Under the pieces are notes generated by a model. It did no database searches, was not told the origin of the DNA, and saw only the letters and a list, made by a program, of their open reading frames with translations. Both the position numbers and the translations under genes were made by a program. From Eledone cirrhosa (Eukaryota), in contig OZ024742.1 of NCBI GenBank assembly GCA_964016885.1, positions 294,624,001-294,688,000 of the forward strand: a stretch of 64,000 nucleotides of DNA. The letters are read 5' to 3'. This document shows positions 2,788-56,335 of the stretch, one piece after another. Every line of letters begins with the position of its first letter. Positions within the stretch are counted from its first letter, which is position 1.

Positions 2788-4398
2788 CTAGGAGGAATTA
2801 TTGCTTTCTGCACTAAAAAAGTTTTCTTCAACACTGCTGCTGTCGTTAAGAACCGGACTGCCTCCTACCGATGAAATTACACAAGCTGATGTGTAAGTTG
2901 CTGGTTCGTCTCCCACCTCCATAGGTCTTGGTCGTTCTCTTCTGCGGCGATGGTGTCGGCGGTTGATGACTGGAGAAGATTGTGGCTCGGGGGGTGTTTG
3001 TGGCTCACCGTTATTTTCTGGAGATCCTTCCTTGGAGTTGCGTTGAAGCTGATAGGTTAAACTCTGCAGGCTACGGGATCGAGTGTTTACAGCCTTTTCT
3101 TCAGTCTCCACCCTGTCTGTACTAATGGACTTATCATCAGCTTCGGGTGGGGCTGGAGGTTCCTCTACGTCCGTCTGTATTGCTGCTTCCCTCAGCTTCT
3201 CGCTCTTGTCTTCTTCTTCAGTTTGTGATGAGGTAGTAGAGGTTGACGGTGTTCTATTGGGGGACTTTTCTCTCCAGTAATCGGCCGCTGATAAAGATCG
3301 ACGAGGCTGCATTGATACCTTTTGTTTCGGCCGATCGGGATCTTCAATAGTTCCCAGTTCAATACTTCCTGGAGTGAATAATATTTGCTTGCATACGGTA
3401 CTAGGAAGTTCCTTAAGTTCAATCTCCGACAGGCATGAAAGTTTCTCTTGCACCTGATTTTTAAGCAGAAGTAGTTCAATGTCTTTCCCTTTCAGAACTA
3501 ACTCAGTTAAGTTACATGTATTTCTCAAACTTTCCAAATTTGACTGCATTTCCACTTTTCTGTTAATGTACTCCATAACCTCAGACCCATACATTGAATG
3601 CAACTCTTCAACCAAGTTTTTCTCTTTAGATCTTATCTCAGCTATAAAAGCAATAGCTACATCATGAATCTTTTGTTCAGCTTCTTTGATCAATGTGTCA
3701 CATTTGCCAAGAGTATCGATCTGAGTGTCATATACATTAATACGATCTTTGCATGACTCCAGGAGACGTTGTATACTATCCTTATATTTAATGACGGCAT
3801 CTGAGAAATTTGTAATTTCGTGGTCCTTATGTTCATTAAATGTACAGAGGACACATATGCATGCTTGGCATGGCTCACAGTAGAATCTAACCACTTCTTC
3901 CTTGTGTTCTTTGCATTCAATATCTTTTTCAATTTCCACATCGAAAAGACTGTGAGCCTTGGTGACCTTTGTTTCTTTGTGCAATTCCACACATGGTTTA
4001 CAGAGAAGTTTATTACAGTCTAGACATTTTGATGATGCCTCTCTGTGTTTACGATTTACCATCTTACAGATATCACAGAATGGAAACTTCGATGGTCTCT
4101 GTCGTGCCACCACCTCTCCTAAACTTGAAACCAGAAAGTTATCCGGAAGTTTTTTCACACCACCGATTGGAAGATTCGTACGTTTCCGACATAATGGACA
4201 TGTGAATTCACGGTAGTCACTATATTTTTTATATGTGCATTCTGACATAACATGGTTCTCGATACACTGTTCACAAAATGTATGCAAGCAATCTAAACAT
4301 TTAGGGTTTTTAAAGCCCTCCAGACAGATCTTACATGTAAGAAACTCATCATGAATTTCTTGGGCTAACTTGTTTCCAGTTGTTGTTGTGGCAGCCAT
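2788..4398 (-). CDS. Tripartite-motif (TRIM) E3 ubiquitin ligase: RING, B-box 1, B-box 2, coiled coil, low-complexity C-terminus (TRIM56/TRIM45-like N-terminal half)
   Basis: 536-aa uninterrupted ORF. C3HC4 RING (CKIC..CLDCLHTFCEQC..CPLC) followed by LPDNF; B-box 1 (CDIC..CLDC..LCKPC..H..H); B-box 2 (CKEH..FYCEPCQACICVLC..HKDH); helical coiled coil. No filamin, NHL or SPRY domain within the ORF. Confidence 0.95.
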   Translation of the reverse strand: MAATTTTGNKLAQEIHDEFLTCKICLEGFKNPKCLDCLHTFCEQCIENHVMSECTYKKYSDYREFTCPLCRKRTNLPIGGVKKLPDNFLVSSLGEVVARQRPSKFPFCDICKMVNRKHREASSKCLDCNKLLCKPCVELHKETKVTKAHSLFDVEIEKDIECKEHKEEVVRFYCEPCQACICVLCTFNEHKDHEITNFSDAVIKYKDSIQRLLESCKDRINVYDTQIDTLGKCDTLIKEAEQKIHDVAIAFIAEIRSKEKNLVEELHSMYGSEVMEYINRKVEMQSNLESLRNTCNLTELVLKGKDIELLLLKNQVQEKLSCLSEIELKELPSTVCKQILFTPGSIELGTIEDPDRPKQKVSMQPRRSLSAADYWREKSPNRTPSTSTTSSQTEEEDKSEKLREAAIQTDVEEPPAPPEADDKSISTDRVETEEKAVNTRSRSLQSLTYQLQRNSKEGSPENNGEPQTPPEPQSSPVINRRHHRRRRERPRPMEVGDEPATYTSACVISSVGGSPVLNDSSSVEENFFSAESNNSS

Positions 4399-4462
4399 GA
4401 TGTCATTAATATCAATAGCTGTTGTGTGATATCTACTTCCAACTTCAAGACGGCGGCGGTTC

Positions 4463-4482
4463 CTGAAAAGAGATCAAAATAT
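4463..4482 (-). promoter_or_regulatory. Splice acceptor of the TRIM coding exon
   Basis: Minus strand reads ATTTTGATCTCTTTTCAG|GAACCG: polypyrimidine tract plus CAG, 64 nt upstream of the ATG. Confidence 0.75.
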
Positions 4483-9332: not shown

Positions 9333-9698
9333 TATATGCTGAGAATTCTATTGCGGGAAGTGGGTTCCTAAAACCATTAGCTATTAATTCTACCATACTA
9401 ATTTAATTCTATAATTTTTATTGCAATTACTGTTATTGTTATAGGTGTTCCTGTTAGTAAGTTTTCCACCTACTTCACCTCCATCCTTTCATATCTTTCA
9501 GATGTTGTTCCCTAGCAACAGCCATAACAAAACATTTATCAGGACTTAAGATAATGGGATACAAAAAAAAAAAAGATTATTTTGACCGACTTCTGAAAAC
9601 ATTCTCTCCCTGAGCCTGCTGTACAAGGGATACAGAGACTGGAGTAGTTCAGAACCTTACTTACAAACAGGACCCTTGAGCCCTACTGTATGAGGGAT

Positions 9699-10226
9699 TT
9701 TCTAACCAGGAAGGGTATGGCATGGTCAGCGTGCAATGACATGCACGCCAGATGGACATCTCAACTTATCAACAAGCTAAAACTGGAAATATTCCAAGCA
9801 ACCATTAAGCCCATATTACTTTATGGATCCGAAACTTGGACACTAACATCACAACTTGAGAGGAGATTGGATGGCACATATACCCGCCTCTTAATGAGAG
9901 TGCAAAACCTATCCTGGAAACGACATCCCACCTTGTCTAAAATCTATGGCAAACTCCCTCGAGCCTCTGCCCTTCTAAAATCCCGGAGAGCTCAATTTGC
10001 TGGCCACTGTCACCGTGCCAGCAATGAAATCATATCCGCTCTCTTGCTCTGGAACCCTGACTCCAGCCTGACTAGGAGTAGGAAGCTGTCATTCCCTGAC
10101 ATTATCTCTAGGGATACGGGAATCAGTAGACAGGACCTGGGGGCAGCGATGGGTAACAGGGAATTCTGGGGCATGAGAGTGAGATCCATCATCTCGACAG
10201 TAGTCGACGAATGATGATGATGATGA
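9699..10226 (+). mobile_element. 5'-truncated RTE-clade LINE with 12-bp TSD
   Basis: Stop-free ORF2 C-terminus (PILLYGSETWTLT..RLLMRVQNLSW..FAGHCHR); (GAT)n tail; TSD TGTATGAGGGAT at 9687-9698 and 10227-10238. Confidence 0.92.
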
Positions 10227-18961: not shown

Positions 18962-19085
18962 GGAAAAAACGGCTTGAACTCTGCCGTCGGGGTCATACTT
19001 TTTCCTATTACCCACTCTACTACCCTAAGTATTGAGTACTCTGGTGCGTTATGGTCCATCTAGTTCCTTACCACATTTCCTTAGT

Positions 19086-19086
<1 letters not shown>
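18960..19086. mobile_element. Fold-back mini-element family A, collapsed-hairpin copy, in (TA)n
   Basis: ATAGGAAAAA|ACGGCTTGAACTCTGCCGTCGGGGTCATACTTTTTCCTAT plus the full tail. Only 10 bp of the outer arm remain. Confidence 0.88.
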
Positions 19087-19117
<31 letters not shown>

Positions 19118-19165
19118 CATATATATATATACATACATACAAATATATATATATTCATACATACA

Positions 19166-19903
19166 TTGTGTGCAGAGGATATACGCAGACTAGAGAGGAA
19201 CGAAGCTTGCATGCTCCGCTGGATGTGTAACAGTAATATACGTGAACGGCAAAGCATAAACGAACTAAGGAAAAAATTAGAGATAAGAGGGATCAGATGT
19301 TGTTTACTCGAGAGAAGGCTGCGTTGGTATGGACACGTGATGCGCATGAAAGTCGATAGCTGTATTATAAAGTGCAGGGCAATAAAGATAGACGGTAGCC
19401 ACGGAATAGGCAGACCTAGAAAAACATGGGATGAGCTGATAAACTCCGACCTCACACACTTACACCTTTCCAAGACAATGTCACTGGACCGTGACCTTTG
19501 GCGGTACTCAGTAACAGAGAAGACCCGCCTTGCCAGTAGGCATCTCTAACAAAATACACCCCTCCCGCCGCCACCCCCACCCCATCCACACCACCCCGTT
19601 CTATGTAAAGTTATGTTGGTGCCGCGCCATCCAGGCCGAAACAAATGAGATCGTGTAGGTGTCACGACAAAAAAACACACAGTCCACGCTGTAATGTGGC
19701 CGTGTAGGCAACACGGTAAAAACCTCCCAGACCCACACTGTAAATGTGGTTGGTGTTAGGAAGGGCATCCAACTGTAGAAAACCTGCCAGACAGTCCTAT
19801 GCGAGCAAGACAATCACTCTTGCCTCAAGTGGGACTACCCCCGTCCAAACCCATGCAAGCGTGGAACACGGACGTTAAACGTTGATGATGATGATGATGA
19901 TGA
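19166..19903 (+). mobile_element. RTE LINE 3' end
   Basis: ORF 19166-19549 (RRLERNEACMLRWMC..RRLRWYGHVMR..GRPRKTW), 3' UTR, (GAT)n. Confidence 0.93.
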
Positions 19904-19907
19904 TATA

Positions 19908-20006
19908 CATCGTCATCATCATCATCGTTTAACATCTATCTTCCACGCTAGCATGGGTTTAGACGGGAATTGTCCCACTTGAAGCAAGATTGGTCGTATA
20001 GGACTG
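19908..20006 (-). mobile_element. Short RTE 3' tail, inverted and abutting the previous copy
   Basis: (CAT)n-CGTTTAACATC..CCACGCTAGCATGGGTTT..CCCACTTGAAGCAAG. Confidence 0.8.
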
Positions 20007-20044
<38 letters not shown>

Positions 20045-20204
20045 GATAGATAGATATTTATTAAAATAATAGATTAAAATTTAAACAAAGAATTGCTGCT
20101 TTGACCCTCTTCTGAAACTCTACGATTTTTATATATATTTATATATATATTATCCTTATCGAGCCCTCTTCAGATTTTAGTCTTCACATTTATTATTATT
20201 ACTA

Positions 20205-21845
20205 TCATCATCATCATCATCATCATCATTTTACGTCCGCTTTTCCCTGCTTGCAAGGGTGGGACGGGTCTTATTCAGCACAGCATCTCTCCACTCGTCA
20301 CGGTCCTTTGTCATCTCCACCGTGAACTTCAATGATCTGAGGTCTGTTCTCACCACCTCCGCCCATGTTTTTTGTAGTCTACCTCTACCACGTCTTCCTT
20401 CAACTGGCATTTCCTGGCACTTCTTCACCCATCGGTCATCCTCCATGCGCATCACATGTCCATACCACCTCAGTCTCCTCTCCTGTACACTACATTCTAC
20501 CCCTCTCAGACACAGTTTCTCTCTCAACACATTTATGCTGGGTCGTTCACGCACATTTACACTGCACATCCAACGGAGCATGCTTGCCTCATTTCTCTCC
20601 AGCCGTCGCATATCCTCTGCAGTTGCTGCCCATGTCTCACTACCATGCAGCATCGCGCTCCTCACACAGGCATCATACAACCGGCCTTTCATAAGCAGGG
20701 AGAAACCCTTCTTCGTCAGCAGAGGAAGCAGCTCCCTAAACTATGGCCTCGGAACACCCTCCTCCCATGCTAATCTGATCTCCTAGGTACCGGAAGCTAT
20801 CCACCACTTCTATAGCGCCCTCCTGCATTTGAAAAATGTGTCTATCAATGCAACTTCTACTGTCTAATTTCCCTGTACATCTACTGCATACATATTTCTC
20901 CCTACTTGTTAGTTTGCCTGCTATCCCGCTACATCTCTTGTGTACCCAGGATCTGCATTGTGTGCATTTTATAGAATTTATGCCAGTTCCTTTTCTGCAT
21001 ATCGAACATGGCCATTTCCCTGACAGAATCAGAGTTTTGTCCTCTTTTCTACTCATCAACACTTTTGTCTTAGCTAGGTTCACTCTCAGTCCTCTTGCTT
21101 CCAACTGCTGTTTCCATAGCCAGAATTTATTCTCTAGCCCCTCTACTGATTCTGCTATAAGAACCAGATCGTCAGCATAGAGAAGTTCCCATGGACAGCC
21201 AGTCTTAAACTCCTCTGTTATGGCTTGGAGGACTATAATGAACAAGAGCGGGCTGAGGACCAAACCTTGATGTACTCCTACTTGTATCTGGAATTCCTCA
21301 CTAAACTCCATTCCTACCCTGACTTTACTGAGAGTACCTCTGTACAAAGTTTGCACTGTCCTCACAAGCCATTCCTCAACACCTAGCTTCCTTAGGGACC
21401 ACCAGATGACAGATCGGAGTACCCTATCAAAGGCCTTCTCTAAGTCAACAAAGGCTAAGTATAGTGGCTTATTCTTCTCTAAGAACCTCTCTTGCAATTG
21501 TCTCACCAAGAAGAGGGCATCTGTTGTACTTTTCCCAGGCACAAAACCAAACTGCATCTCATCTAGTTTGACCCTTTCTCTAATTAGTTGTGCTAATATC
21601 CTTTCTGCCATTTTCATAACCTGATCCATCAGTTTTATACCCCTATAATTGCTCCTCTCCAGAGCATCCCCTTTACCTTTGTAGCAATTTATGAGAATAC
21701 TGCTGCACCAGTCTTTGGGTATGACACCACCATATATAGCCTGATTGATGATGTGTGCAACCAGTTTAGTGCCTACGTCCCCTGATGCCTTCAGCATCTC
21801 AGCAACTATTCCCGATGGTCCAGCAGCCTTACCATTTTTCATTTC
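20205..21845 (-). pseudogene. RTE LINE ORF2 fragment: RT, PHD-like finger and C-terminus; frameshifted or deleted near 20735
   Basis: GKAAGPSG, YKGKGD..NYRGIKL, QFGF, FVDLEKAFDRV, GVHQG..LSPLLF, LLYADDL; (CAT)n tail at 20205-20229. Confidence 0.95.
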
Positions 21846-26453: not shown

Positions 26454-28329
26454 TTATACTTCTCTTAGGTCAGTGTTGTTTGTTTGGGTGTTGTTGTTGT
26501 TCCACTCATTCTTTCTGTTTAGCTTTGGTCTTCTAATTTCTATTTCACTGGCCTCTCTGATTTGCCTATCTGCTGGGTCATTCCTATGTTTAGATATTAT
26601 TCTAATTTCTATGTTGTCTATGTTACCGTCATGATGTTGTCTAGCATGTTCGTATAGTACTGACCCGTTTTTTCGTCCTTTTAGTTCCCCCCAGTGTTGG
26701 TCTATCCTTTCACCTATGCTACGAGCTGTCTCACCTATGTATGTTGTTGTCGTGTTTCTACAAGTACCCTCTGTACATCTTATGCTATAGACTACGTTTC
26801 TAGTTTTACAGTTTATCCGGGGGTTCACCTTACATATGATACATTTCCTATTGGTACAGTGGGTTTTCTTAAAAGGGTAGGTTTTGCTGATCAGGGATTT
26901 TATGGTGGTTCCTGGCTTTTCTACCACCTTTATTTTTAAGTGGGTCTTTCTCAGGGCCTTTCTACACTGGTTAGCTAATTTCCCTCCAGGGGTGGCGTCC
27001 ACAAACATGACACTCTGATATCTCTGGTTGTCGTACCATGATGTGGCCTTCCCTATCTTATGTCTAGCCCTATCTAAGCTATTCCATGATTTGCTCCTGT
27101 ATAGTGGGCAAATTCCTTTCATGTCCAGTTCTATGAGGGTCTTATACTTTTCCATGGCTCCTTCGTATACTCTGACTCTGTCTCTTTGGTTGTAGCCAGA
27201 GAACTGCATGCGGTTGATGAAGTGTTGGATGTGTCCTTCCATTTCTGTTGGGTCGCACATGCTGGACACATTCTTCATCACTCGTACCAAATCTGCGATC
27301 AGAATATTAAACTTAGCACTACTGGACATTGCTGAGTTTTTGAGTATCAGGTATTTGGAGGCCATGGGTTTAGCATAGTGTGAGTGGAGAATTTGGGCTC
27401 TCTCGTCTATAGTGTTAATCCAGAGTTCTGTGTCTAATACAGGTAGTCTATTGTTAGGGTGTTTGGAAGGGAAGTCTATAGTTACAGTTATACTCTGGTG
27501 TATGGAATTAGCTATCTGCTGGATGCTTTCCATCGTGCTACGTTCTAAATCAAACTTGTTAGTGCTCTCTAGTGGGGGTGTTCTTATAACTATATTGATA
27601 TCGTCTACATAACGAGAGTACATGATGAGGTCTATGGAGCTTTCATTAAGGAGATCTTTAAGTCTCCTTTCCCACCATACCATGAAAAGGTTGGCAACAT
27701 CGCCAGCTATGCTGACGCCGATGGCTGCTCCCTCATTTTGGGTGTAGATTTTCTCATTGAACTTAAATATGTGGCCCTTTAGGGTAGTTTTGATACTAGC
27801 CCCTATTGCATGTGCGACCATTTTTCTTACCTGATCAGTGTTTTGGGGGGTCCGTATAGCTTTGGTCCACCCAATCCACCTTCCTATGGGAGTCTTTTTA
27901 GCCATTGAGGTTATGGTGGGGGGTCTACCTCTTATAGGTCTACTAGGGCAGAAACATCTAAGGTCATGGCTGTCTAGGTAGTCAGTGTCGTAGGTAAGTC
28001 TAAGTAGGAGGCCCAGTTCGTCTGTGTCGACGTCGCAGAACTCCACCTCACTCTCAATGATCATCTCCACACATCTTTTCACAGCAAAATCAATGTTAAT
28101 GGATGGGTACAGTGACACCACATCCATGCTGCCTATTATGCAGTTGGATAGGCTCCTGTTTTTGTTGCACTCACTGATTCTGCTGAGGAGGTCCTCTGTA
28201 CTTTCACATACATCTGGGGACATCTTGATTATGGGGCGTATAACCATTGAGAGGAAGTAGGAGATCCTGTAGTTGCTAGCTATATTAGCTCCGCATACAG
28301 GTCTTGTTGGTGGTCCTGTTGTCGGGTCG
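26454..28329 (-). CDS. Penelope-like reverse transcriptase plus GIY-YIG endonuclease (N-terminally truncated)
   Basis: RPVC (RT motif 2), SMDVVSLYPSI, QNEGAAIG..VANLFM, RYVDD, LPVLD; Zn-finger-like CTNRKCIIC; VVYSIRC..YIGET.RSI.ERI.QH..E. No stops over about 624 codons. Confidence 0.95.
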
Positions 28330-28393
28330 TAGACGGACTGAACAAAAAAAATGGCGTAGACATACAACACAACAGGAGGAACAATGAATATAA

Positions 28394-28436
28394 CACCACT
28401 GACGATGTTGCAGATGTGCAACGAAAGATTTATGTA
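28394..28436 (+). ncRNA. Same hammerhead motif in the inverted 5' pseudo-LTR of PLE1
   Basis: CTGACGA at 28399-28405, GAAA at 28423-28426, predicted cleavage after 28432. Confidence 0.7.
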
Positions 28437-28730
28437 AACTATATATATATGTGTTTGTCTATATTGTATCTGTATTATTTTATTTTTGACCACCGGTCAG
28501 TCAATGGCAACATTGAGGACCGAGTAAGTTAGATCGCAGATATATATATATAAAAGACAGCGAGAAGCGAAAACCAACCAAACAGTGAGTGTGTTCTGTT
28601 ATTAATTCTGGCAATATTACGCAAATATGACCCTCCCCAAATATAACAATATATATATATATATAAATGAAAAGTATAGAAATTATTATGAGCAAGAAGC
28701 ACACAGTATTTCATAATATATATATACATC

Positions 28731-28764
<34 letters not shown>

Positions 28765-28785
28765 GTATAATAAAACAATACAATA

Positions 28786-28860
28786 TAATTACCTCATTAC
28801 CAGAGGTTTCCCGAATAAGACGAATACAAGAAACGTCCTCATTCGTTCGTCAGACAAGGC
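28786..28860 (-). ncRNA. Hammerhead motif in a (TA)n-flanked 150-bp insert
   Basis: CTGACGA-A-CGAATGAGGACG..CGTCTTATTCG-G-GAAA-CCTC TGGTAAT GAGG-TA: 11-bp stem II, 5-bp stem III, GUA site; stem I poorly paired. Confidence 0.7.
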
Positions 28861-28926
28861 AATTTTTCAATTGACTTTTTCAATTTTCAATGAAAACTTC
28901 AATACTTTTATATATATATATATATA

Positions 28927-29839
28927 TTTCGTTTCTGAATTTGTTTAGCAAGATTCTTTATCTGAAATCGTGTGTTGAAACCGATATTGTTATACTTAGG
29001 GAGGGTCATGTTGACAATAAGAAACACACGCACCAGTTGCTTTCACTTCAATTTATTATAATAAATTTATAATAAATTTATAAATTTCTAAATTTCTGGT
29101 TGGTTGGTTGGTTCCACAACCAGATAGTTGTTTATATATTGTCATAGTTCTTTCGTCACACACTCTGTGACCTCTTCAGTGACTGGGGATTCCTTTCTTT
29201 GTTTCTGTGCCTCTCCTTTGTTCTGTCCTACGCCATTTTGTTTCTGTGTGTGTGTTGTGTGCTCAGTCTGCGCATGCGCCACATCCGGGTGTCTGTGTGT
29301 GTTTATGTTCATTTATTTATTTGTTTATTTACATGTTACTGGTTGGTTGTTTGTTCTATGTGTGTGTGTGTTTTCATTTTGTCCTTAATTGTAAGTTGTG
29401 ATGTTGCTGTTCCACTCATATTTTCTATTTAATTTTGGTTGTAATTCTTTTATGTTTATTGCCTCTGTAATTTGTCTAAACATTGCGTCTTTTCTGTATG
29501 TAGATTCTATTTTTATTTCTATGTTCTCTAATTTACCCTTGTGTTCTATTTTAGCATGTTGGTAGAGTACAGATGATTCTTTACTATCTTGAAGGTCTCG
29601 CCAGTGTTCATTTATCCGTTCTCCTACACTACGAGCTGTCTCACCTATGTACACTATATTTTTGTCTCTACATTGTCCTTCAGTACATCTTATGCTATAC
29701 ACTACATTTCTAGTTTTGCAGTTAATATGGGGGCTTATTTTACAGGTTATACATTTCTTATCTATACATGAGGGTCTTTGAAAAGTCTTGCTAATAAGTG
29801 TTTTTCTTGAGGTACCATAAAAACACTTATTAGCAAGAC
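28927..29839 (-). mobile_element. Second Penelope-like element (PLE2): GIY-YIG fragment plus pseudo-LTR
   Basis: ORF 29385-29702 (VYSIRCTEGQC..YIGETARSVGERINEH..QITEA..PKLNRKYEW) is paralogous to PLE1; the pLTR end GAAATCGTGTG..GATATTGTTATA..GGGAGGGTCAT is shared with PLE1. Confidence 0.92.
29141..29183 (-). ncRNA. Minimal type I hammerhead in the PLE2 pseudo-LTR
   Basis: GTCA-CTGAAGA-G-GTCACA GAGTG TGTGAC-GAAA-GAAC-TA-TGAC: stem I 4 bp, stem II 6 bp, CUA site. Confidence 0.8.
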
Positions 29840-29871
29840 ATAGACGTTAAACGATGATGATGATGATGATG

Positions 29872-40811: not shown

Positions 40812-42940
40812 TATGAAGACGGGTAAGGCGGCTGGGCCTTTGGAAATAGCTGCTGAAATGCTGAAAGCATCTGGAATGGTGGGACACACTATGGTCACCC
40901 GGATAGTAACCAAGTCATACAGAATGGGGTCGTTCTGAAGGACTGGCATAGCAGCATCTTCATTAACTGCTACAAGTGTAAAGGAGATGCCCTAGATAGG
41001 GGTAACTATAGAGGCATTAAATTAATCAACCAGGTCATGAAGGTCACAGAAAAAGTAATAGCGCAACTAATCAGAGAGCGAATTGATTTAGATGAAATGC
41101 AGTTCGGGTTTGTGTCAGGTAAAAGTACCACAGACGCTCTTTTCATTGTACGACAACTACAGGAGAAGTACCTAGCTAAAAGTAAACTCCTATACTTAGC
41201 TTTTGTCGACTTGGAGAAAGCCTTTGACAAAGTCCCCCGCTCCATTAGCTGGTGGGCTCTTAGAAAACTAGGTGTTGATGAATGGCTTGTGAGAGCTATA
41301 CAAGCCATGTATAAAGAAACAGTCAGCAAGGTTAGAATTAACAACGAATATAGTGAAGAGTTTAGCGTAAAAGTTGGTGTTCATCAGGGCTCCTTTCTTA
41401 GCCCCTTACTATTTATTATTGCCCTTCAGGCTATAACAGAGGAGTTCAAGACCGGCTGCCCATGGGAACTCCTATATGCAGATGATCTAACGCTCATAGC
41501 TGAATCAATGGCTGAACTAGAGAAGAAATTCCAAACATGGAAGCATGGCCTAGAATCAAAAGACCTTAAAGTTAACTTGTCTAAGACTAAAGTTCTAGTT
41601 TGTAGGAAGGAAAATAGGGCACTGGTCCCATCTGGGAAATGACCATGCTCAGTGTGTAGGAAAGGAGTAGGCAGAAACTCCATTTTATGTCTCAAATGCA
41701 AAGTATGGGTGCATAAAAGATGTAGTGGGATCACAGGTAAGCTAACTAAGAATATAGATTTTATATGCGGCCGGTGCTCTGGTGCAATAAGTAGCAGCAA
41801 GTGTCCACAGAATACTAGTTCATTCCATTGCACAGATGGTTCTATAGAAATAGTGGACACCTTCCGTTACCTGGGTGACAAAATCAGCAGTGGAGGAGGG
41901 TGCTCTGAAAGTACTGTAGCTAGAGTCCGAACGGGATGGAAAAAGTTCAGAGAGCTTATACCACTATTGGCCGCTAAAAATGAAAGGCAGGCTGTATGAT
42001 GCCTGCATACGAACAGCAATGTTACATGGCAGTGAGATATATGCAGACTGGAGAGGAACGAAGCTTGCATGCTCCGTTGTATGTGTAATAGTAATATACG
42101 TGAACGGCAAAGCATAAATGAACTAAGGGAGAAATTAGGAATAAGAGGGATCAGATGTTGTTTACTCGAGAGAAGACTACGTTGGTACGGTCACATGATG
42201 CGCATGAAAGACGACAGCTGTATAAAAAAGTGCAGGGCGATAAAAATAGACGGTAGCCACGGAGTAGGCAGACCCAGAAAAGCCTGGGACGACTTGATAA
42301 ATTCCGACCTCACACACTTACACCTCTCCAAGACAATGTCACTGGACCGAGATCTTTGGCGCTACACAGTAATACAGAAGACCCACCTTGCCTAAGTACA
42401 AAGCGAAACCTACAGTCAGCAGGTACCTCTAACAAAAATACACCCCTGTCCCACTACCCCCACCCTATCCACACCACCCCCTTAAATGTGAAGTTATGTT
42501 GGCACCACAACATCCAGTCCGAAACAAATGAGGTTGTGTAGGTGTCACGACAAAAAAACACACAGTCCACGCTGTAATGTGGCCATGTAGGTAACATGGT
42601 AAAAACCTCCCAGTCCACACTGTAAACATGGTTGGTGTTAGGAAGAGCACCCAGCCGTAGAAAACCCACCAGACATGTAGGTGTCACGACAAAAAAACAC
42701 ACGGTCCACGCTGTAATGTGGCCGTGTAGGTAGCATGGTAAAAACCTCCCAGTCCACACTGTAAATGTGGTTGGTGTTAGGAAGGGCATCCAACCGTAGA
42801 AAACCCGCCAGACAGTTCTATACGAGCAGGACAACCAATCTTGCCTCAAGTGGGAAAACTCCCGTCCAAACCCATGCAAGTGTGGAAGATGGACGTTAAA
42901 CGAAGATGATAATGATGATGATGATGATGATGATGATGAC
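40812..42940 (+). pseudogene. RTE LINE, 5'-truncated ORF2 (RT, PHD-like finger, C-terminus) plus 3' UTR with a tandem duplication of about 139 bp
   Basis: ORFs 41037-41642, 41652-41999 and 42069-42395 with QFGF, FVDLEKAFD, GVHQG, LLYADDL; stops and frameshifts; (GAT)n tail. Confidence 0.95.
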
Positions 42941-49965: not shown

Positions 49966-50839
49966 GGTTATGGGACTGTCAATGTGTGAGGCATTTATCA
50001 TTATATTTTATTTACTATTTAGTAAGGGAAAGACAGGCCTCCAAAACTGGTTGGGTGGGGGGAGACAGGAGAAAATTATATCCTCAAACCCGAGAGACCT
50101 GGCCTGAATACTTAGACTCAGCTAAAGACTCCCAAGGGACAGGTGGTGGCGTTAAACCAGGTGACAGATTAAGTCTACAACACCAATGTAAACATTTTTA
50201 TATATATTAGAATATTGCGTTTATTGTTGTTGTTGTTGGTGGTGGTGGTGGTGGTGATAGTGGTAGTGTTGTTGTTTTGTCCCAGGTCAGCCATGACTGC
50301 AGACCTCTGAGTAAAGGTGTTCAAGCTATGGCTATCCATCATTTTTTTGTGGGTATTGTGTATCTAGGACTAAATTATCCAAGGAGTATTTCTTATTTGC
50401 AAGATGGTAAAATGTGATGTGAGGGAGATTTGGCTGCTATTCTTAGCAAATTGAGTGACCATGCAGAAGTTCTCTCATTGCTTTGCTGTATAAATGCATG
50501 TATAAGTGCATATGTACTTACATGTAAATATGTGTGTAAATGTGCAAGTATCTGTACAGCATATGTGCACAGCATGTGTGTTCACAAGCAAATGTGTATA
50601 AGTGCAAATGCACGTGCATTTATTATGCAAGCACACATACTTGTGTGCATATTTGTATATGCATGTGTACATAAGGGTACACGTATGTAGTTAGGTATGA
50701 TGTAGTGTGTGATTATACACAACTATAAAATTGCACACCTTTGCATATGTATGTGTACATGCATGTGTGTGTGTGTGCTCGCATGCACATTTATGTATGT
50801 GTGTGTGTGTGTGTGTGTGTGAATAGGTGTGAGAAAGAA

Positions 50840-50889
<50 letters not shown>

Positions 50890-51788
50890 GGGGAGATTGA
50901 TTCCATGAAATTATAGTTGAAGAATACTGGTGAAATGTTTGGAATAAATCTAGTAAAGTTATGAAAGTTAGTGAAAAAGTTTCAGCCAGTAGGTGGCGTC
51001 CAGTTATGGTCTTCTGGACAAATCAGGCTAAGCTATGGTGATGTTGTTGGTAATGGTGATGGTGATGGTGATGTTAAAATGACCAAAGCTTCATTACACT
51101 GAGGATTGGTTCTATGAACTAGTACTGAAAAATAATGGTGAAAAGTGTAGAATAAATCTGCTAGGCAAGACGAGTTAGTGAAGAAGTCAGTAATTAGATT
51201 CTAGTTTTAGTCTCTGTGTACACATCTAGCTAAGCAATGGTGATGTTGGTGTTAAAATGACAGGGATGGAGGGGCTGGTTAGATGGAGGAGATACACACG
51301 AGTTAAGACCTACCTTAGTTGTCATCCCTGAAGCGAAACTACCAGTAAAAAAATCCACAATATAGCGACGAAAATTTACTACTGCCAAGAGTGGCAGCCT
51401 TTCGCCAACGAAAGGCTGTATGAGGGAGCTCCTAGGTGGGATGTCGAAAGACTGAAGGCTGAGAGATGGCAACAAGAAAAGAGAGAGAGATAGAGAGATA
51501 TAGAGAGATATAGAGAGATTGAGAGAGGATGTAGAGATAGATGTGTGGGAGAGAGATAGAAAGGGGGAAAAGATATATAGATAGGAGCGAGAGGGGAGAA
51601 GGTGGAGGAAAAAAAAATAGGAATAACTGTGTAAAAATGTGAGAAGAAGAAGAGAAAAAGAGTCAGACCGACAGAGGGAGGGAGCTAGTGAGAGGGAGAG
51701 AGATAGGTATGAGGTAGAGAGTGGGGGGGGGGAGAGAAGCGAAATGTGAATATCTGTGTGGGAGAAAGAAAAGAAAGATATAAAGATT

Positions 51789-51819
<31 letters not shown>

Positions 51820-52158
51820 GAGATAGAGAGAGGGGGAGGGGGAGTGAGGGAGAGAGAAAGAGGTGTATATAATACTGGTTGTTGCATCTTGAAATAGGGG
51901 GAGACAGAAAGGTGTGGTAGAAATGGTGAGAAAGAGAGAAGGGGGGTAAGAAGAAGGGTGATTCTAATAGATACAGTGCTTCTACTGAGAAATACAGAGA
52001 TTCTTTGAGGAAGAATATATGGAGTGGGTGGGGCGTGAGGGAGGGGGAGCAGCAGATGAGACTAGCAGAATGAGATTTTTTTGAAACATACACACACACA
52101 TATATACATACATATATATATATACATACATATATACATACATATATATATATATGTG

Positions 52159-52433
52159 AAGGCACATGGCCTAGTGGTAAGGGTGTTGGACTTATGATCA
52201 TAATGTCGTGGGCTCGATTCCTGGGTTGCGTGCTGTGTTCTTGAGCAAAACACTTCATTTCATGTTGCTCCAGTATACACAGCTGAAAAGGAGTACCAGC
52301 AATAGCTGGGGGTTTAACCCTGCGATGGACTGGTGTCCTGTCCAGGGGGGAGTCTTGTACTCTCAGTCGCTTCACGCCATGAAACCGGGATAATCACCGG
52401 ACAAATGAGCCTTCTGGCTTAAGACAGACTTTA
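52159..52433 (+). mobile_element. tRNA-derived SINE, family S2 (3' part also at 36120-36216)
   Basis: A-box TGGCCTAGTGG, B-box GGCTCGATTCC, CORE-like TGTGTTCTTGAGCAAAACACTT, V-domain-like GATGGACTGGTGTCCTGTCCAGGG. Confidence 0.85.
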
Positions 52434-52548
52434 GATATATATATATATATATATACATACATACATATATATATATATACATACAAACATATATGCATAC
52501 ATACATATATATATACATACATACATACATATATACATACATACATAT

Positions 52549-52596
<48 letters not shown>

Positions 52597-52679
52597 GTTA
52601 TTCCGGGTTGAATCGGAGGTAACCACAGTAAGTAAGGTACTCAATACATTGCAGAGTATAAAAGTTTTAATATAGATGA

Positions 52680-52728
52680 GATTCTACAGGACTAGAACTG
52701 TTTCATTCTTTAGAAATCCTCAGGAATC
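52680..52728 (-). ncRNA. Complete type I hammerhead motif
   Basis: GATTC-CTGAGGA-T TTC TAAA GAA T-GAAA-CAG TTCTAGTC CTG-TA-GAATC. Confidence 0.85.
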
Positions 52729-52732
52729 TCAT

Positions 52733-52781
52733 GATTCCTGATGATTTCTAAAGAATGAAACAGTTCTAGTCCTGTAGAATC
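52733..52781 (+). ncRNA. Complete type I hammerhead motif
   Basis: GATTC-CTGATGA-T TTC TAAA GAA T-GAAA-CAG TTCTAGTC CTG-TA-GAATC; predicted cleavage after GUA at 52776. Confidence 0.85.
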
Positions 52782-52784
52782 TCA

Positions 52785-52832
<48 letters not shown>

Positions 52833-53964
52833 CACATATATACATACATACATATATACACACATACACACACATGTATATATATATAGTATATATCTTG
52901 CTGTGTTCTTTCAGTTTCTTCTGTAACTTTATCCTCTCTCCATTTTACCTTGTCTTGCCTTCTCACCCATATCATACTCACTTTCCATCCCAATTCATCT
53001 CATCCTCTCACTCTGCCATATCCTTCTTTTTCCCCTCTCTCATCTATCTTCATATCTCCCCTCTTTCCCTCTCTCTTCTCTATCCTCCTCCCCATCACCC
53101 CTTTCTCCCGCATTCTATCTACCCCCTCCCTCTCTTTCTAGTCTATCTTCACATCTCCCCTCACCCTTCCTCCACTCCAGTTTATCTATTCACTTCTCTC
53201 TCCTCCTCCTCTCATGCCTGATTTTATATCTCTCCCATTTTTCTCCCCCCCCCCTCTCTTTCTCTTCTTTCTCGACCTCTTTCTCATCTATGTTAATATT
53301 CTCTTCCCCTTCTGCTCTTTCTTAACTCTCATCATTCCATATAAAATATTTATAAATCTAAGTTTTTTTCCCATCTTATGAAAAACTTTCCATGAAGTAT
53401 AAATTCTGTAGTTGTATATTCCCAGACTGGAAATCTCCAACATTGTTGATAATTAATGACGGGTGAGAGTAAAATGTCTGCTGATAATTGGTACCAGGTG
53501 AGACTTATTAGTGTCAGGTAAAAATATGAAAGGAACCAATTGTCGAATGAGACCAAAGAAACAATGTTTCCTTTGGGCCTTCCATTGTTGATACTAACTG
53601 CTGGTTGTAAAATTCTGGTAGAAAGGGGTGATACATGAATTAAGAATGCACAAAGCCAGATTAGATACTGCCAAGCATCTTGTCTGACTTTTTAACAATT
53701 CCACCAATCCACCACCTCCAAATACTTACTTTATTGACCCCCAAAAGAATAAAAGGTAAAGTTAGCCTCAGTGGAATTTGAACTGTGAGTACAGGAACCG
53801 CCTTCAAGGAATTTAGTTGATCGAGTACTTATTTTTTAAAGTCTGGAACTTAGTTTATCAAGCTCTTTTGTTGAACTGTTAGGTTATGGGACACAAACAA
53901 ATAGTAAATGTAAACTTAGACCTGATCACACCGATATACATACATACATATATATATATATATA

Positions 53965-54500
53965 TCATCATCATCATCATCGTTTAACGTCCATCTTCCA
54001 CGCTTGCATGGGTTTGGACGGGAGTTTTCCCACTTGAGGCAAGATTGGTTGTCTTGCTCGTATAGGACTGTCTGGCAGGTTTTCTACGGCTGGATGCCCT
54101 TCCTAACACCAACCACGTTTACAGTGTGGACTGGGAGGTTTTTACCGTGTTACCTACACGGTCAGATTACAGCGTGGACTGTGTGTTTTTTTTTTCCGTG
54201 ACACCTACACGACCTCATTTATTTCGGACTGAATGTTGTGGTACCAACATAACTTTACATCGATGGGGTGGGGGTGGTGGGACGGGGGTGTATTTTTGTT
54301 AGAGGTGCCTACTGACTGTAGGTTTCGCTTTGTACTTAGGCAAGGCGGGTCTTCTGTATTACTGTGTAGCGCCAAAGATCTCGGTCCAGTGACAGTGTCT
54401 TGGAGAGGTGTAAGTGTGTGAGGTCGGAATTTATCAAGTCGTCCCAGGTTTTTCTGGGTCTGCCTACACCGTGGCTACCGTCTATTTTTATTGCCCTGCA
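53965..54500 (-). mobile_element. RTE LINE 3' end
   Basis: CRAIKIDGSHGVGRPRKTWDDLINSDL; 3' UTR; (CAT)n at 53965. Confidence 0.92.
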
Positions 54501-54527
54501 CATATATATATATATATGTTGCAGATC

Positions 54528-54579
<52 letters not shown>

Positions 54580-54693
54580 GATAAATCTACCAAAAGTTTA
54601 CGGTAGTGTCCAATCCGTATATATATATATATCATATATATATATCATATATATATATCATAAATATATATCATAAATATATATCATATATAT

Positions 54694-54744
<51 letters not shown>

Positions 54745-55073
54745 CAGATCATAGGGTTAGGGGCAAATTTGCTATTATTTGTAAATGGTTGTTAAGACTA
54801 TCGTCTTGTCCTTTGCCCATTTGTTACTGTCACTTGTGCACCAGAGCCAGTTGTATTGACCTTAAAGCATTGAAACAATGTATCTGAAACAGTCAACTGA
54901 TGAGATGGGACAACTGTCTGTATTCTTGACGACATTGGTTTGAGAATCACCATGCAGGAGTTTTAATGAAAAAACAATTTAACCTAATAACAAATGTTTT
55001 GATAATCCAAAATGGAGAAAGTAGGGTTTATTAACATCAATTTTTAACACCAATTTTTGTATGTTATAAAACC

Positions 55074-55116
<43 letters not shown>

Positions 55117-55725
55117 AGGGGTAGATAGAGAGAGAGAGATAGTGTGTGTGTGTGTGAGAGAGAGAGATAATTGACTCCAGTACTGGACTAGTACTGTACT
55201 TTATCGCCACCTCAAAAACAAAAATGACCTTGGTGCAATTTGAACACAGAATGCCAAGAACTGTAACAAATTTCACAATGCATCCTCTCGGCCAGCTTGC
55301 TGGTTATTTTACAACTTGAAGTAGTTGTTGATATATCTGACAACTGTGTAGATTTAGGTGGCCTCATATGAGATGCAATCATAGGAGGTTCCTTGTGTTT
55401 TAATAATAGGGATCCCAGTAATATCATGTCATAATATTTTCTCAGGTGACAAAAGGCAGGATTTGAACTCAGAACACAAAGAACCAGAGCAAGATATTTC
55501 AAAGCTTCTTGTCTGATAATTTAGCAATTCTGCCAGTTCACCAGCCTGAAATAATGAAAGGCATAAGTTGATTTTGGTGGGATTTGAACTCAGAGCACAG
55601 TAGAAATGGAAGATATATTGCTTTAATCTGTTGACTGCCGCATATATTTTACGCAGCTACAGTTACTGTGTCAAATGACTATTTTGATTGAAAAATGTCA
55701 CATCAATAAACCCGTAACCCTATCT

Positions 55726-55870
55726 AACTTTGAAGTTATAAACTGTTGGAAATGAGTTCATAACTTTGAAATTATGAATTGTTGGAAACGAGTTCATTAC
55801 TTTGAACTTATAAACTATCTGAAACTAGTTCATAACTTTGAAGTTATGAACTGTTGGAAATGAGCTCAAA
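55726..55870. repeat. 36-bp tandem repeat x4
   Basis: AACTTTGAAGTTATAAACTGTTGGAAATGAGTTCAT. Confidence 0.85.
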
Positions 55871-55984
55871 CATGTTAGGACAAATTTTCTTCTCTGTGGT
55901 ACTGGAATGCATCCATGTTAGGATGATTTATCTCGTCTATGGCATGGAAAAAGTTAATGACTCTACTAATTTGCTGATTCAAAA

Positions 55985-56335
55985 TTTAAGAGATCACAGC
56001 TCTGGTACTATGGGCATGTGGTTAGAATGACTCAGGAAAGATTTTATGGGCAAAACCAACTGGCAGGAGACCCAGGGCTAGACTCCTAGCAAGATGGTTG
56101 GATAACAGCCATGAGTTTGGCTGGTCTTGCTTGGGGATCCAGCCAGATCAATTGGTGATGGTTGCTTCTGACAGGGCCTGCTTGAAGGAATGTTTGAGGA
56201 CTTTGTGCCAAGACCCTCTCAGGAATAAGTGGGAGAAGAAGAAGAAGAAGAAGAAGAAGAAGAAGAAGAAGAAGAAGAAGAAGAAGAAGAAGAAGAAGAA
56301 GAAGAAGAAGAAGAAGAAGAAGAAGAAGAAGAAGG
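55985..56335 (+). mobile_element. LINE 3' fragment with (GAA)n tail (same family as 17490; another copy at about 61145-61515)
   Basis: AAACCAACTGGCAGGAGACCCAGGG..CAAGATGGTTGGATAA..CTCTCAGGAATAAGTGGG(AGA)n. Confidence 0.85.

Follow-up and report, generated by a model that had tools for sequence, protein, structure and literature searches.

Results

Structure of the locus

The window (the whole 64,000-nucleotide stretch of the Eledone cirrhosa genome analysed here) contains a 122-bp palindrome, which consists of two 59-bp arms (52670–52728 and 52733–52791) and a 4-nt centre (52729–52732). The original prediction had placed a complete hammerhead motif on each strand of this palindrome, and our motif scan bore this out: each strand had CUGANGA, GAAA, a GUA cleavage triplet, and a stem III of 4 bp counting A15.1-U16.1, with predicted cuts after 52776 on the plus strand and between 52685 and 52684 on the minus strand. 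Stem II, which the prediction had itself cautioned was short and closed by U-U, had 3 bp and a loop of 4 nt, the U-U lying at 10.1/11.1; the loop of stem III was 8 nt. The conserved core of the type I hammerhead (CUGANGA, GAAA, and UH) was found, and the G10.1-C11.1 pair closing stem II in this type was absent, U-U taking its place in 19 of 19 aligned rows. The stem lengths proposed earlier (5 bp for stem I and 4 bp for stem III) held for stem III on both strands and for stem I on the plus strand; stem I on the minus strand is 9 bp, of which 6 bp are as in the parent element and 3 bp are supplied by the junction.

The long arm (52596–52729, sense on the minus strand) corresponds to +1 to +134 of the parent, i.e., the hammerhead and then a 3' extension, and shows 97% identity to the 5' end of the intact parent copy L109 described below. 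Its hammerhead motif lies at 52676–52732 on the minus strand, with the core CUGAGGA at 52723–52717, and a one-sided 74-nt "tail" at 52596–52669 (minus strand; +61 to +134) spans the interval between the two outer end points that recur in the family. The short arm (52733–52791, plus strand) corresponds to +2 to +60 and carries the second type I motif, with the core CUGAUGA at 52738–52744. At the head-to-head junction (52729–52732), 52729 is parent +1, the predicted transcription start; the other three bases, 52730–52732, are absent from the upstream DNA of the parent and comprise a G at −1 and two further bases. The sole mismatch between the 59-bp arms was confirmed at 52719/52742, which is position N7. 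The G at 52719 on the minus strand is a mutation private to this copy (1 of 109 palindromes and 1 of the 30 closest copies). N7 was U in both arms of 107 of the 109 palindromes, and a meaning of the mismatch was not supported.

The (TA)n flanks claimed previously were found at 52435–52595, a (TA)n/(TACA)n microsatellite beside the long end, and at 52787–52896, where the flank beside the short end proper begins at 52792. Copies of the family are inserted in (TA)n, and TA runs flank the element at the 30 closest-copy loci viewed. Because the insertion lies inside (TA)n, a target-site duplication is unreadable. A tRNA-derived SINE-like stretch, judged by eye, directly adjoins the TA flank at 52155–52430.

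A search of 50000–56000 against Rfam (E up to 5) yielded 74 matches, none of them to a hammerhead; those over the palindrome were to miRNA-hairpin and snoRNA models, below the gathering score. Hence, the hammerhead call is based on the motif scan and the covariation described below.

Read support for the palindrome, named earlier as a point on which it could fail, was obtained at the level of the family. Short-read contigs of two public runs bridge a centre of the family (X4 record 14 and X5 record 24), and no contig spans the whole locus with this exact junction. An assembly artefact was considered unlikely given the varied centres, the asymmetric arms, and these bridging contigs. Contigs from two other organisms (runs X5 and X6) were also seen to carry pieces of the family, one of them bridging a head-to-head centre.

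Other elements in the window

A second, unrelated Penelope-like element (PLE) was found in partial tandem at 26457–29846 on the minus strand. It comprises a GIY-YIG end (29388–29846; Pfam E 7.8e-05), its own type I hammerhead at about 28787–28864 with an 11-bp stem I and a long stem II, and, after the hammerhead, a 680-codon open frame with a reverse transcriptase (RT) match (E 1.2e-04). Its hammerhead region gave 1,631 candidates in the genome. The window further contains an open frame of 561 codons (2791–4473, minus strand) that has RING and B-box domains and is an exon of a TRIM-type E3 ligase, and pieces of LINE-type reverse transcriptase genes at 19085–21845, 40857–42392, and 9648–10211, which we take to be RTE-like.

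Family size and arrangement of copies

A search of the 3.0-Gb genome with the 196-base element gave 1,034 candidates, and 36 of the 40 that were scored matched over 195–196 bases at 97–100%. Exact patterns for the main subfamilies detected 1,043 forward and 1,042 reverse centres, and family-wide the whole genome held 4,798 head-to-head ribozyme pairs. Pattern counts also gave 20,402 ribozyme cores, 9,300 exact copies of a 26-nt piece of the tail, and 4,975 copies retaining the natural upstream sequence. The reversed-pattern controls gave 0 matches for every one of these counts; a chance origin of the palindrome is therefore excluded.

An inverted arm adjoined 56 of 100 tail loci, which thus combine an inverted 5'-truncated copy with a one-sided tail, the arrangement expected of inverted PLE pLTRs. 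The original interpretation of the element as a fold-back PLE pLTR was supported in this sense, as an inverted (fold-back-like) pLTR. Among 62 unique loci that were not picked for likeness to the present one, 37 different centres were counted, and the copies therefore did not share the single centre that had been envisaged. A palindromic master amplified as a unit, in the manner of a MITE, was ruled out by this diversity and by the many subfamilies, each with matched arms.

Two rarer arrangements were observed. Rare variants (L078–L107) have the ribozyme core as the loop of an inverted repeat joined at a 6-bp stem I. The extended-stem-I pattern had 64 matches, and many of the 30 viewed were junctions made at stem I itself. 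In addition, a head-to-tail array of an ORF-less unit of 1.03–1.11 kb from the same PLE family was found at L274 (G000:C1:83679000-83688999). The unit consists of ribozyme, tail, 3' UTR end, and promoter; 9 units were present in the stretch examined and 12 by the genome pattern count. This array fits the definition of a PLE-derived non-LTR retrozyme given in bioRxiv 10.64898/2026.07.22.740005. The present locus was also considered as a non-LTR retrozyme, and this was rejected, as it is head-to-head and single and has no head-to-tail tandem.

The parent element

Loci sampled by their tail included copies extending upstream into a promoter-like stretch and others extending downstream into coding sequence. 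L109 is an intact copy, in which a ribozyme, the tail, a 713-aa ORF starting at +182, a 3' UTR, CCAAT, TATA, and a second ribozyme follow one another. The ribozyme is the same at both ends, and the second one ends in (TA)n at about +67. A (TA/TG)n microsatellite of about 3 kb (2250–5250 of L109) lies in the 3' UTR between two conserved parts, and its length varies among copies.

The 713-aa protein combines RT and GIY-YIG in a single ORF, with YRDDG at 347 and VY..YIG at 585–604. It has RWR at 38 (a conservative change from RWK), DKT at 116, CxCX5C at 566, CxxC at 666 and 691, and CxH at 694; a single Cys lies between VY and YIG, without an internal CCHH. These features, together with the canonical hammerhead in the pLTR and the insertion in (TA)n, are those of the Hydra clade, whose motif set and (TA)n targets are defined in section 11 of PMC8557442. 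By its protein motifs, the parent is accordingly assigned to the Hydra-clade PLEs. In Pfam, the 713-aa ORF gave GIY-YIG below the cut-off (E 0.012) and no RT match, and three frame pieces of a broken copy (L108) matched 0 families; the best E value in a PDB search with the intact ORF was 0.078. The genome has many frames of 758 codons from stop to stop.

Inner ends, predicted start site, and centres

The 5' ends of tail matches piled up near +1. In a sample made up of the 100 tail matches that come first on contig C1, which is not a random draw and in which a few end calls depend on the method, 38 ends fell at −3 to +10 and 1 at −11 to −4; 29 matches continued into the promoter, and 32 stopped further in or diverged. 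Relative to +1, TATAAATA is located at −30 and CCAAT at −84. The TATA of the pLTR has one mismatch to TATAWAAR, its spacing recurs in two other subfamilies, and +1 lies within a match to the initiator consensus YYANWYY as given in PMC1475891. Core-promoter motifs are known to have a high false-discovery rate (PMC1475891); with this in mind, we predict from the motifs and the insertion ends that +1 is the transcription start. Cleavage by the ribozyme was rejected as what sets the inner boundary, since the cut lies at +45/+46 and not at +1. About 5 of the 100 ends fell at +42 to +46, and at least one of these lies on stem I microhomology.

Of the 36 arms extending to +1, 27 had G at −1, a position at which C stands in the parent (binomial p 4e-10 relative to 25%, on arms that are not fully independent). 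An untemplated G in L1 and SVA has been read as reverse transcription of the cap (PMC4859970). The centres of the 62 loci were divided equally: 31 had 0–2 unpaired bases and 31 had at least 3. A centre with 0–2 unpaired bases would be too tight for simple fold-back priming.

The outer ends recurred at two points, +60/+67 and about +134. A short arm was paired with a long arm at 54 of the 62 loci, and the short arm mostly ended at +60 or +67. The same two points were seen in promoter-side copies (n=39), of which 8 ended at +60 to +73 and 27 at the long end, while 4 ran on.

Selection, decay, and folding of the ribozyme

The two arms of a palindrome matched each other closely in loop II, which was identical in 111 of 118 pairs, whereas random pairing would give 42%. 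No pair combined the two most frequent loop II types (71 and 28 pairs), and the 7 discordant pairs are consistent with later mutation. This concordance suggests that both arms go back to a single RNA, a single source locus, or the one subfamily then active.

Variants common to both arms numbered 36 in loop II, 2 in loop III, and 0 in the 7 scored core sites or stems II–III, a count that omits the two main loop II types and in which many loci were chosen by exact patterns favouring intact cores. Mutations of one arm alone hit the core at 16 of 826 sites (1.9%) and the remainder at 63 of 3,186 (about 2%; p=1.0). This background rate speaks against the functional ambisense pair that the original prediction had proposed. 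Across subfamilies, stem I showed covariation: 3 of its 6 pairs change on both sides, 96% of the cells are paired, and 0 of 500 shuffles reached this. Stems II and III were nearly invariant and hence uninformative on covariation in the 19 hand-picked related rows. A distal extension of stem I via the upstream sequence was examined; it appeared possible in the main subfamily, with no sign of it in two others.

The two ribozymes face away from the centre. The antisense arm would therefore be transcribed first in either direction, and the hairpin would form. The hairpin was predicted at −110 and −106 kcal/mol, about 73 kcal/mol better than the ribozyme fold, in agreement with the earlier idea that each ribozyme could be masked by its antisense arm. 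Single arms were also predicted to favour other folds, by 5.2 kcal/mol (plus) and 9.6 kcal/mol (minus). Loop III is self-complementary, with predicted energies of −12.8 kcal/mol for the dimer and −1.4 kcal/mol for the monomer; judging from these energies, it could form the dimer known from PLE hammerheads (PMC4209133). We consider it likely that selection maintained the ribozyme in the source elements and that the stubs carry it as a passenger, and likewise that the present locus is a neutral stub, inert as a ribozyme, rather than a two-way RNA switch.

Discussion

Formation of the stubs

Here, we propose that the locus is an insertion of a Hydra-clade PLE in a TA repeat, likely composed of two head-to-head cDNAs of the first 60 and the first 134 RNA bases, and likely ribozyme-inert; we put the probability of this reading at roughly 0.8. 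The endonuclease of the element would nick both (TA)n strands, and each 3' end would serve as the primer for reverse transcription from either of two internal sites close to the RNA 5' end, the template being uncleaved, capped sense RNA. Each cDNA would extend past the capped end of the template, in many cases gaining a base copied from the cap, and the two cDNA ends would be joined by template jumping or end-joining. The purified protein of a PLE is reported to extend both target strands, to use two internal start sites that define the tail, and to act on uncleaved RNA (PMC11167929), although this two-strand in vitro evidence comes from a Poseidon-clade element and the present family belongs to the Hydra clade.

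In a more specific version, the stubs would be a fossil record of how PLE integration ends: two target-primed "strong-stop" cDNAs, one per cut TA strand, extend to the capped end of a sense RNA starting exactly at the first stem of the hammerhead and then serve as mutual second-strand templates. To this version we give even odds.

The main alternative keeps the same family and the passenger status and derives the second arm from one cDNA, or an antisense RNA, that folds back and primes itself, the outer end of the short arm being made by endonuclease cutting or TA microhomology. Such folding back is the published proposal for head-to-head PLE palindromes (PMC3846280, Discussion), and it accounts at once for the near-total concordance of the arms. 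The +60 end, moreover, falls in TATAT, which matches the target. The present copy itself fits it and counts against two cDNAs: the three extra bases of its 4-nt centre are also what copying the 3' strand of stem I would give, which makes fold-back possible for this copy, a pattern shared by 2 of the 27 arms with G. The junctions at stem I among the 64 extended-stem-I matches likewise indicate that a second route exists, and the 31 centres with 3 or more unpaired bases also count against two cDNAs. However, the tight half of the 62 centres (31 with 0–2 unpaired bases) is difficult to obtain by folding back, and in a centre that ranks with the commonest (5 of 62), each arm is complete to +1 and carries an extra G, with a single base separating the two. 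Under an antisense template, ends at a sense initiator with a cap-like G would be left unaccounted for. Ordinary direct copies, including the full-length L109, also have their 3' end at the short end point. Two cDNAs are therefore favoured over antisense self-priming, because of the ends at the predicted start, the extra G, the tight centres, and the subfamily variant shared by both arms, and we regard fold-back as an unlikely general origin of the stubs.

It is very unlikely that the palindromes are a selected working element, either a cassette that cleaves itself in both directions or a hairpin retained as an ADAR/Dicer substrate. Both cores are intact here, there are thousands of copies, any read-through transcript would form a 59-bp duplex, and small RNAs against PLEs have been reported in a rotifer (PMC3846280). 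Nevertheless, one-arm mutations reach the core as often as other sites despite sampling that favours intact cores, the antisense arm always comes first, the ribozyme fold costs about 73 kcal/mol, most stubs have no promoter, and in many of them the centre removes part of one core. Equally improbable is that +1 is a splice acceptor, or a stop of the reverse transcriptase at stem I, instead of a transcription start: a T-rich tract lies upstream and ends in CAG at −1 to +2, and in Drosophila virilis the intron of Penelope terminates at the 5' end of helix I (PMC4209133), but the varied centres contain no common upstream exon sequence, one subfamily (L255) without AG at +1/+2 retains the TATA spacing, and TATA at −30 and the initiator match fit a start.

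Comparison with known systems

The parent resembles the Hydra-clade EN+ PLEs described by Craig et al. 2021 (PMC8557442), including Hydra-1_Obim, in having a single ORF with a C-terminal GIY-YIG, RW[K/R], DKT, a CxCX5C linker, CxxC, and CxH, and no internal CCHH. The likeness to the Hydra-clade PLEs of that paper extends to the canonical type I hammerhead, the use of (TA)n as target, the inverted copy truncated at its 5' end, and the tail on one side only. Several differences were found. The tail is approximately 70–75 nt here and 30–40 nt in the Hydra-clade PLEs, and a pLTR with TATA and CCAAT is evident in the present family, whereas Hydra-1_Obim is noted as "no pLTR" (PMC8557442). Hydra-1_Obim, the only cephalopod Hydra row among the supplement entries of PMC8557442 that were covered, also differs from the present family in its hammerhead and protein in an unaligned comparison by eye. 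On that by-eye comparison, the family is considered new, of a known kind of PLE.

The Penelope elements of Adineta vaga (Arkhipova et al. 2013, PMC3846280) similarly have head-to-head inverted pLTRs, a junction palindrome, an optional tail on one side, and a putative TATA and initiator. They were described from a handful of copies, for which antisense self-priming was proposed and left open; here, in contrast, there are thousands of ORF-less stubs whose centres lie at a predicted sense start with an extra G. PAc, a Poseidon PLE of Anolis analysed in vitro (Frangieh et al. 2024, PMC11167929), likewise starts reverse transcription at two internal sites, which define the tail, and has an AT-rich target.

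Minimal and dimeric PLE hammerheads (Cervera and de la Pena 2014, PMC4209133) share the type I motif in pLTRs and a palindromic loop III capable of dimerization. Compared with those described there, the present motif has a 3-bp stem II with U-U replacing the usual G-C, a 4-bp stem III, and an 8-nt loop. In Schistosoma, dual hammerhead motifs occur on opposite strands 100–700 bp apart (PMC4209133). The original prediction had contrasted an ambisense arrangement with the direct tandem of PLEs; this contrast fails, since head-to-head palindromes at inverted pLTR junctions have already been described (PMC3846280, PMC8557442).

Avsunviroidae and viroid-like RNAs also carry a hammerhead on each strand, as two distinct ribozymes on a replicating circle (PMC11722881), whereas the present locus has one ribozyme copied twice in a near-perfect chromosomal inverted repeat that decays neutrally. 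A viroid-like ambisense RNA was accordingly rejected for this locus, as the arms are copies of one motif, their decay is at the background rate, and the insertion in (TA)n is linear.

Significance

Published descriptions already cover inverted pLTRs, a tail on one side, and the targeting of (TA)n (PMC8557442), as well as head-to-head junction palindromes (PMC3846280), and the origin of the head-to-head inverted ends is called unresolved in both papers. In the literature examined, whose coverage leaves out most subscription papers, there was no tie between the inversion centre and a capped start. The population anatomy of the stubs, namely, the 5' pile-up at +1, the extra G, the tight centres, and the matched arms, may be new.

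By itself, the locus is ordinary, one stub among thousands; it is the family that bears on how PLE inversions form. The approximately 4,800 near-perfect hairpins of 50–70 bp constitute a large passive source of double-stranded RNA, which may be relevant to cephalopod RNA editing. The intact ORF and the many 758-codon frames make the protein testable in vitro. If the two strong-stop cDNAs did serve as templates for each other, the head-to-head inversion, the tail on one side, and the palindrome at the junction would all follow with no need of an antisense template. The thousands of young copies together with the intact ORFs make this directly testable.
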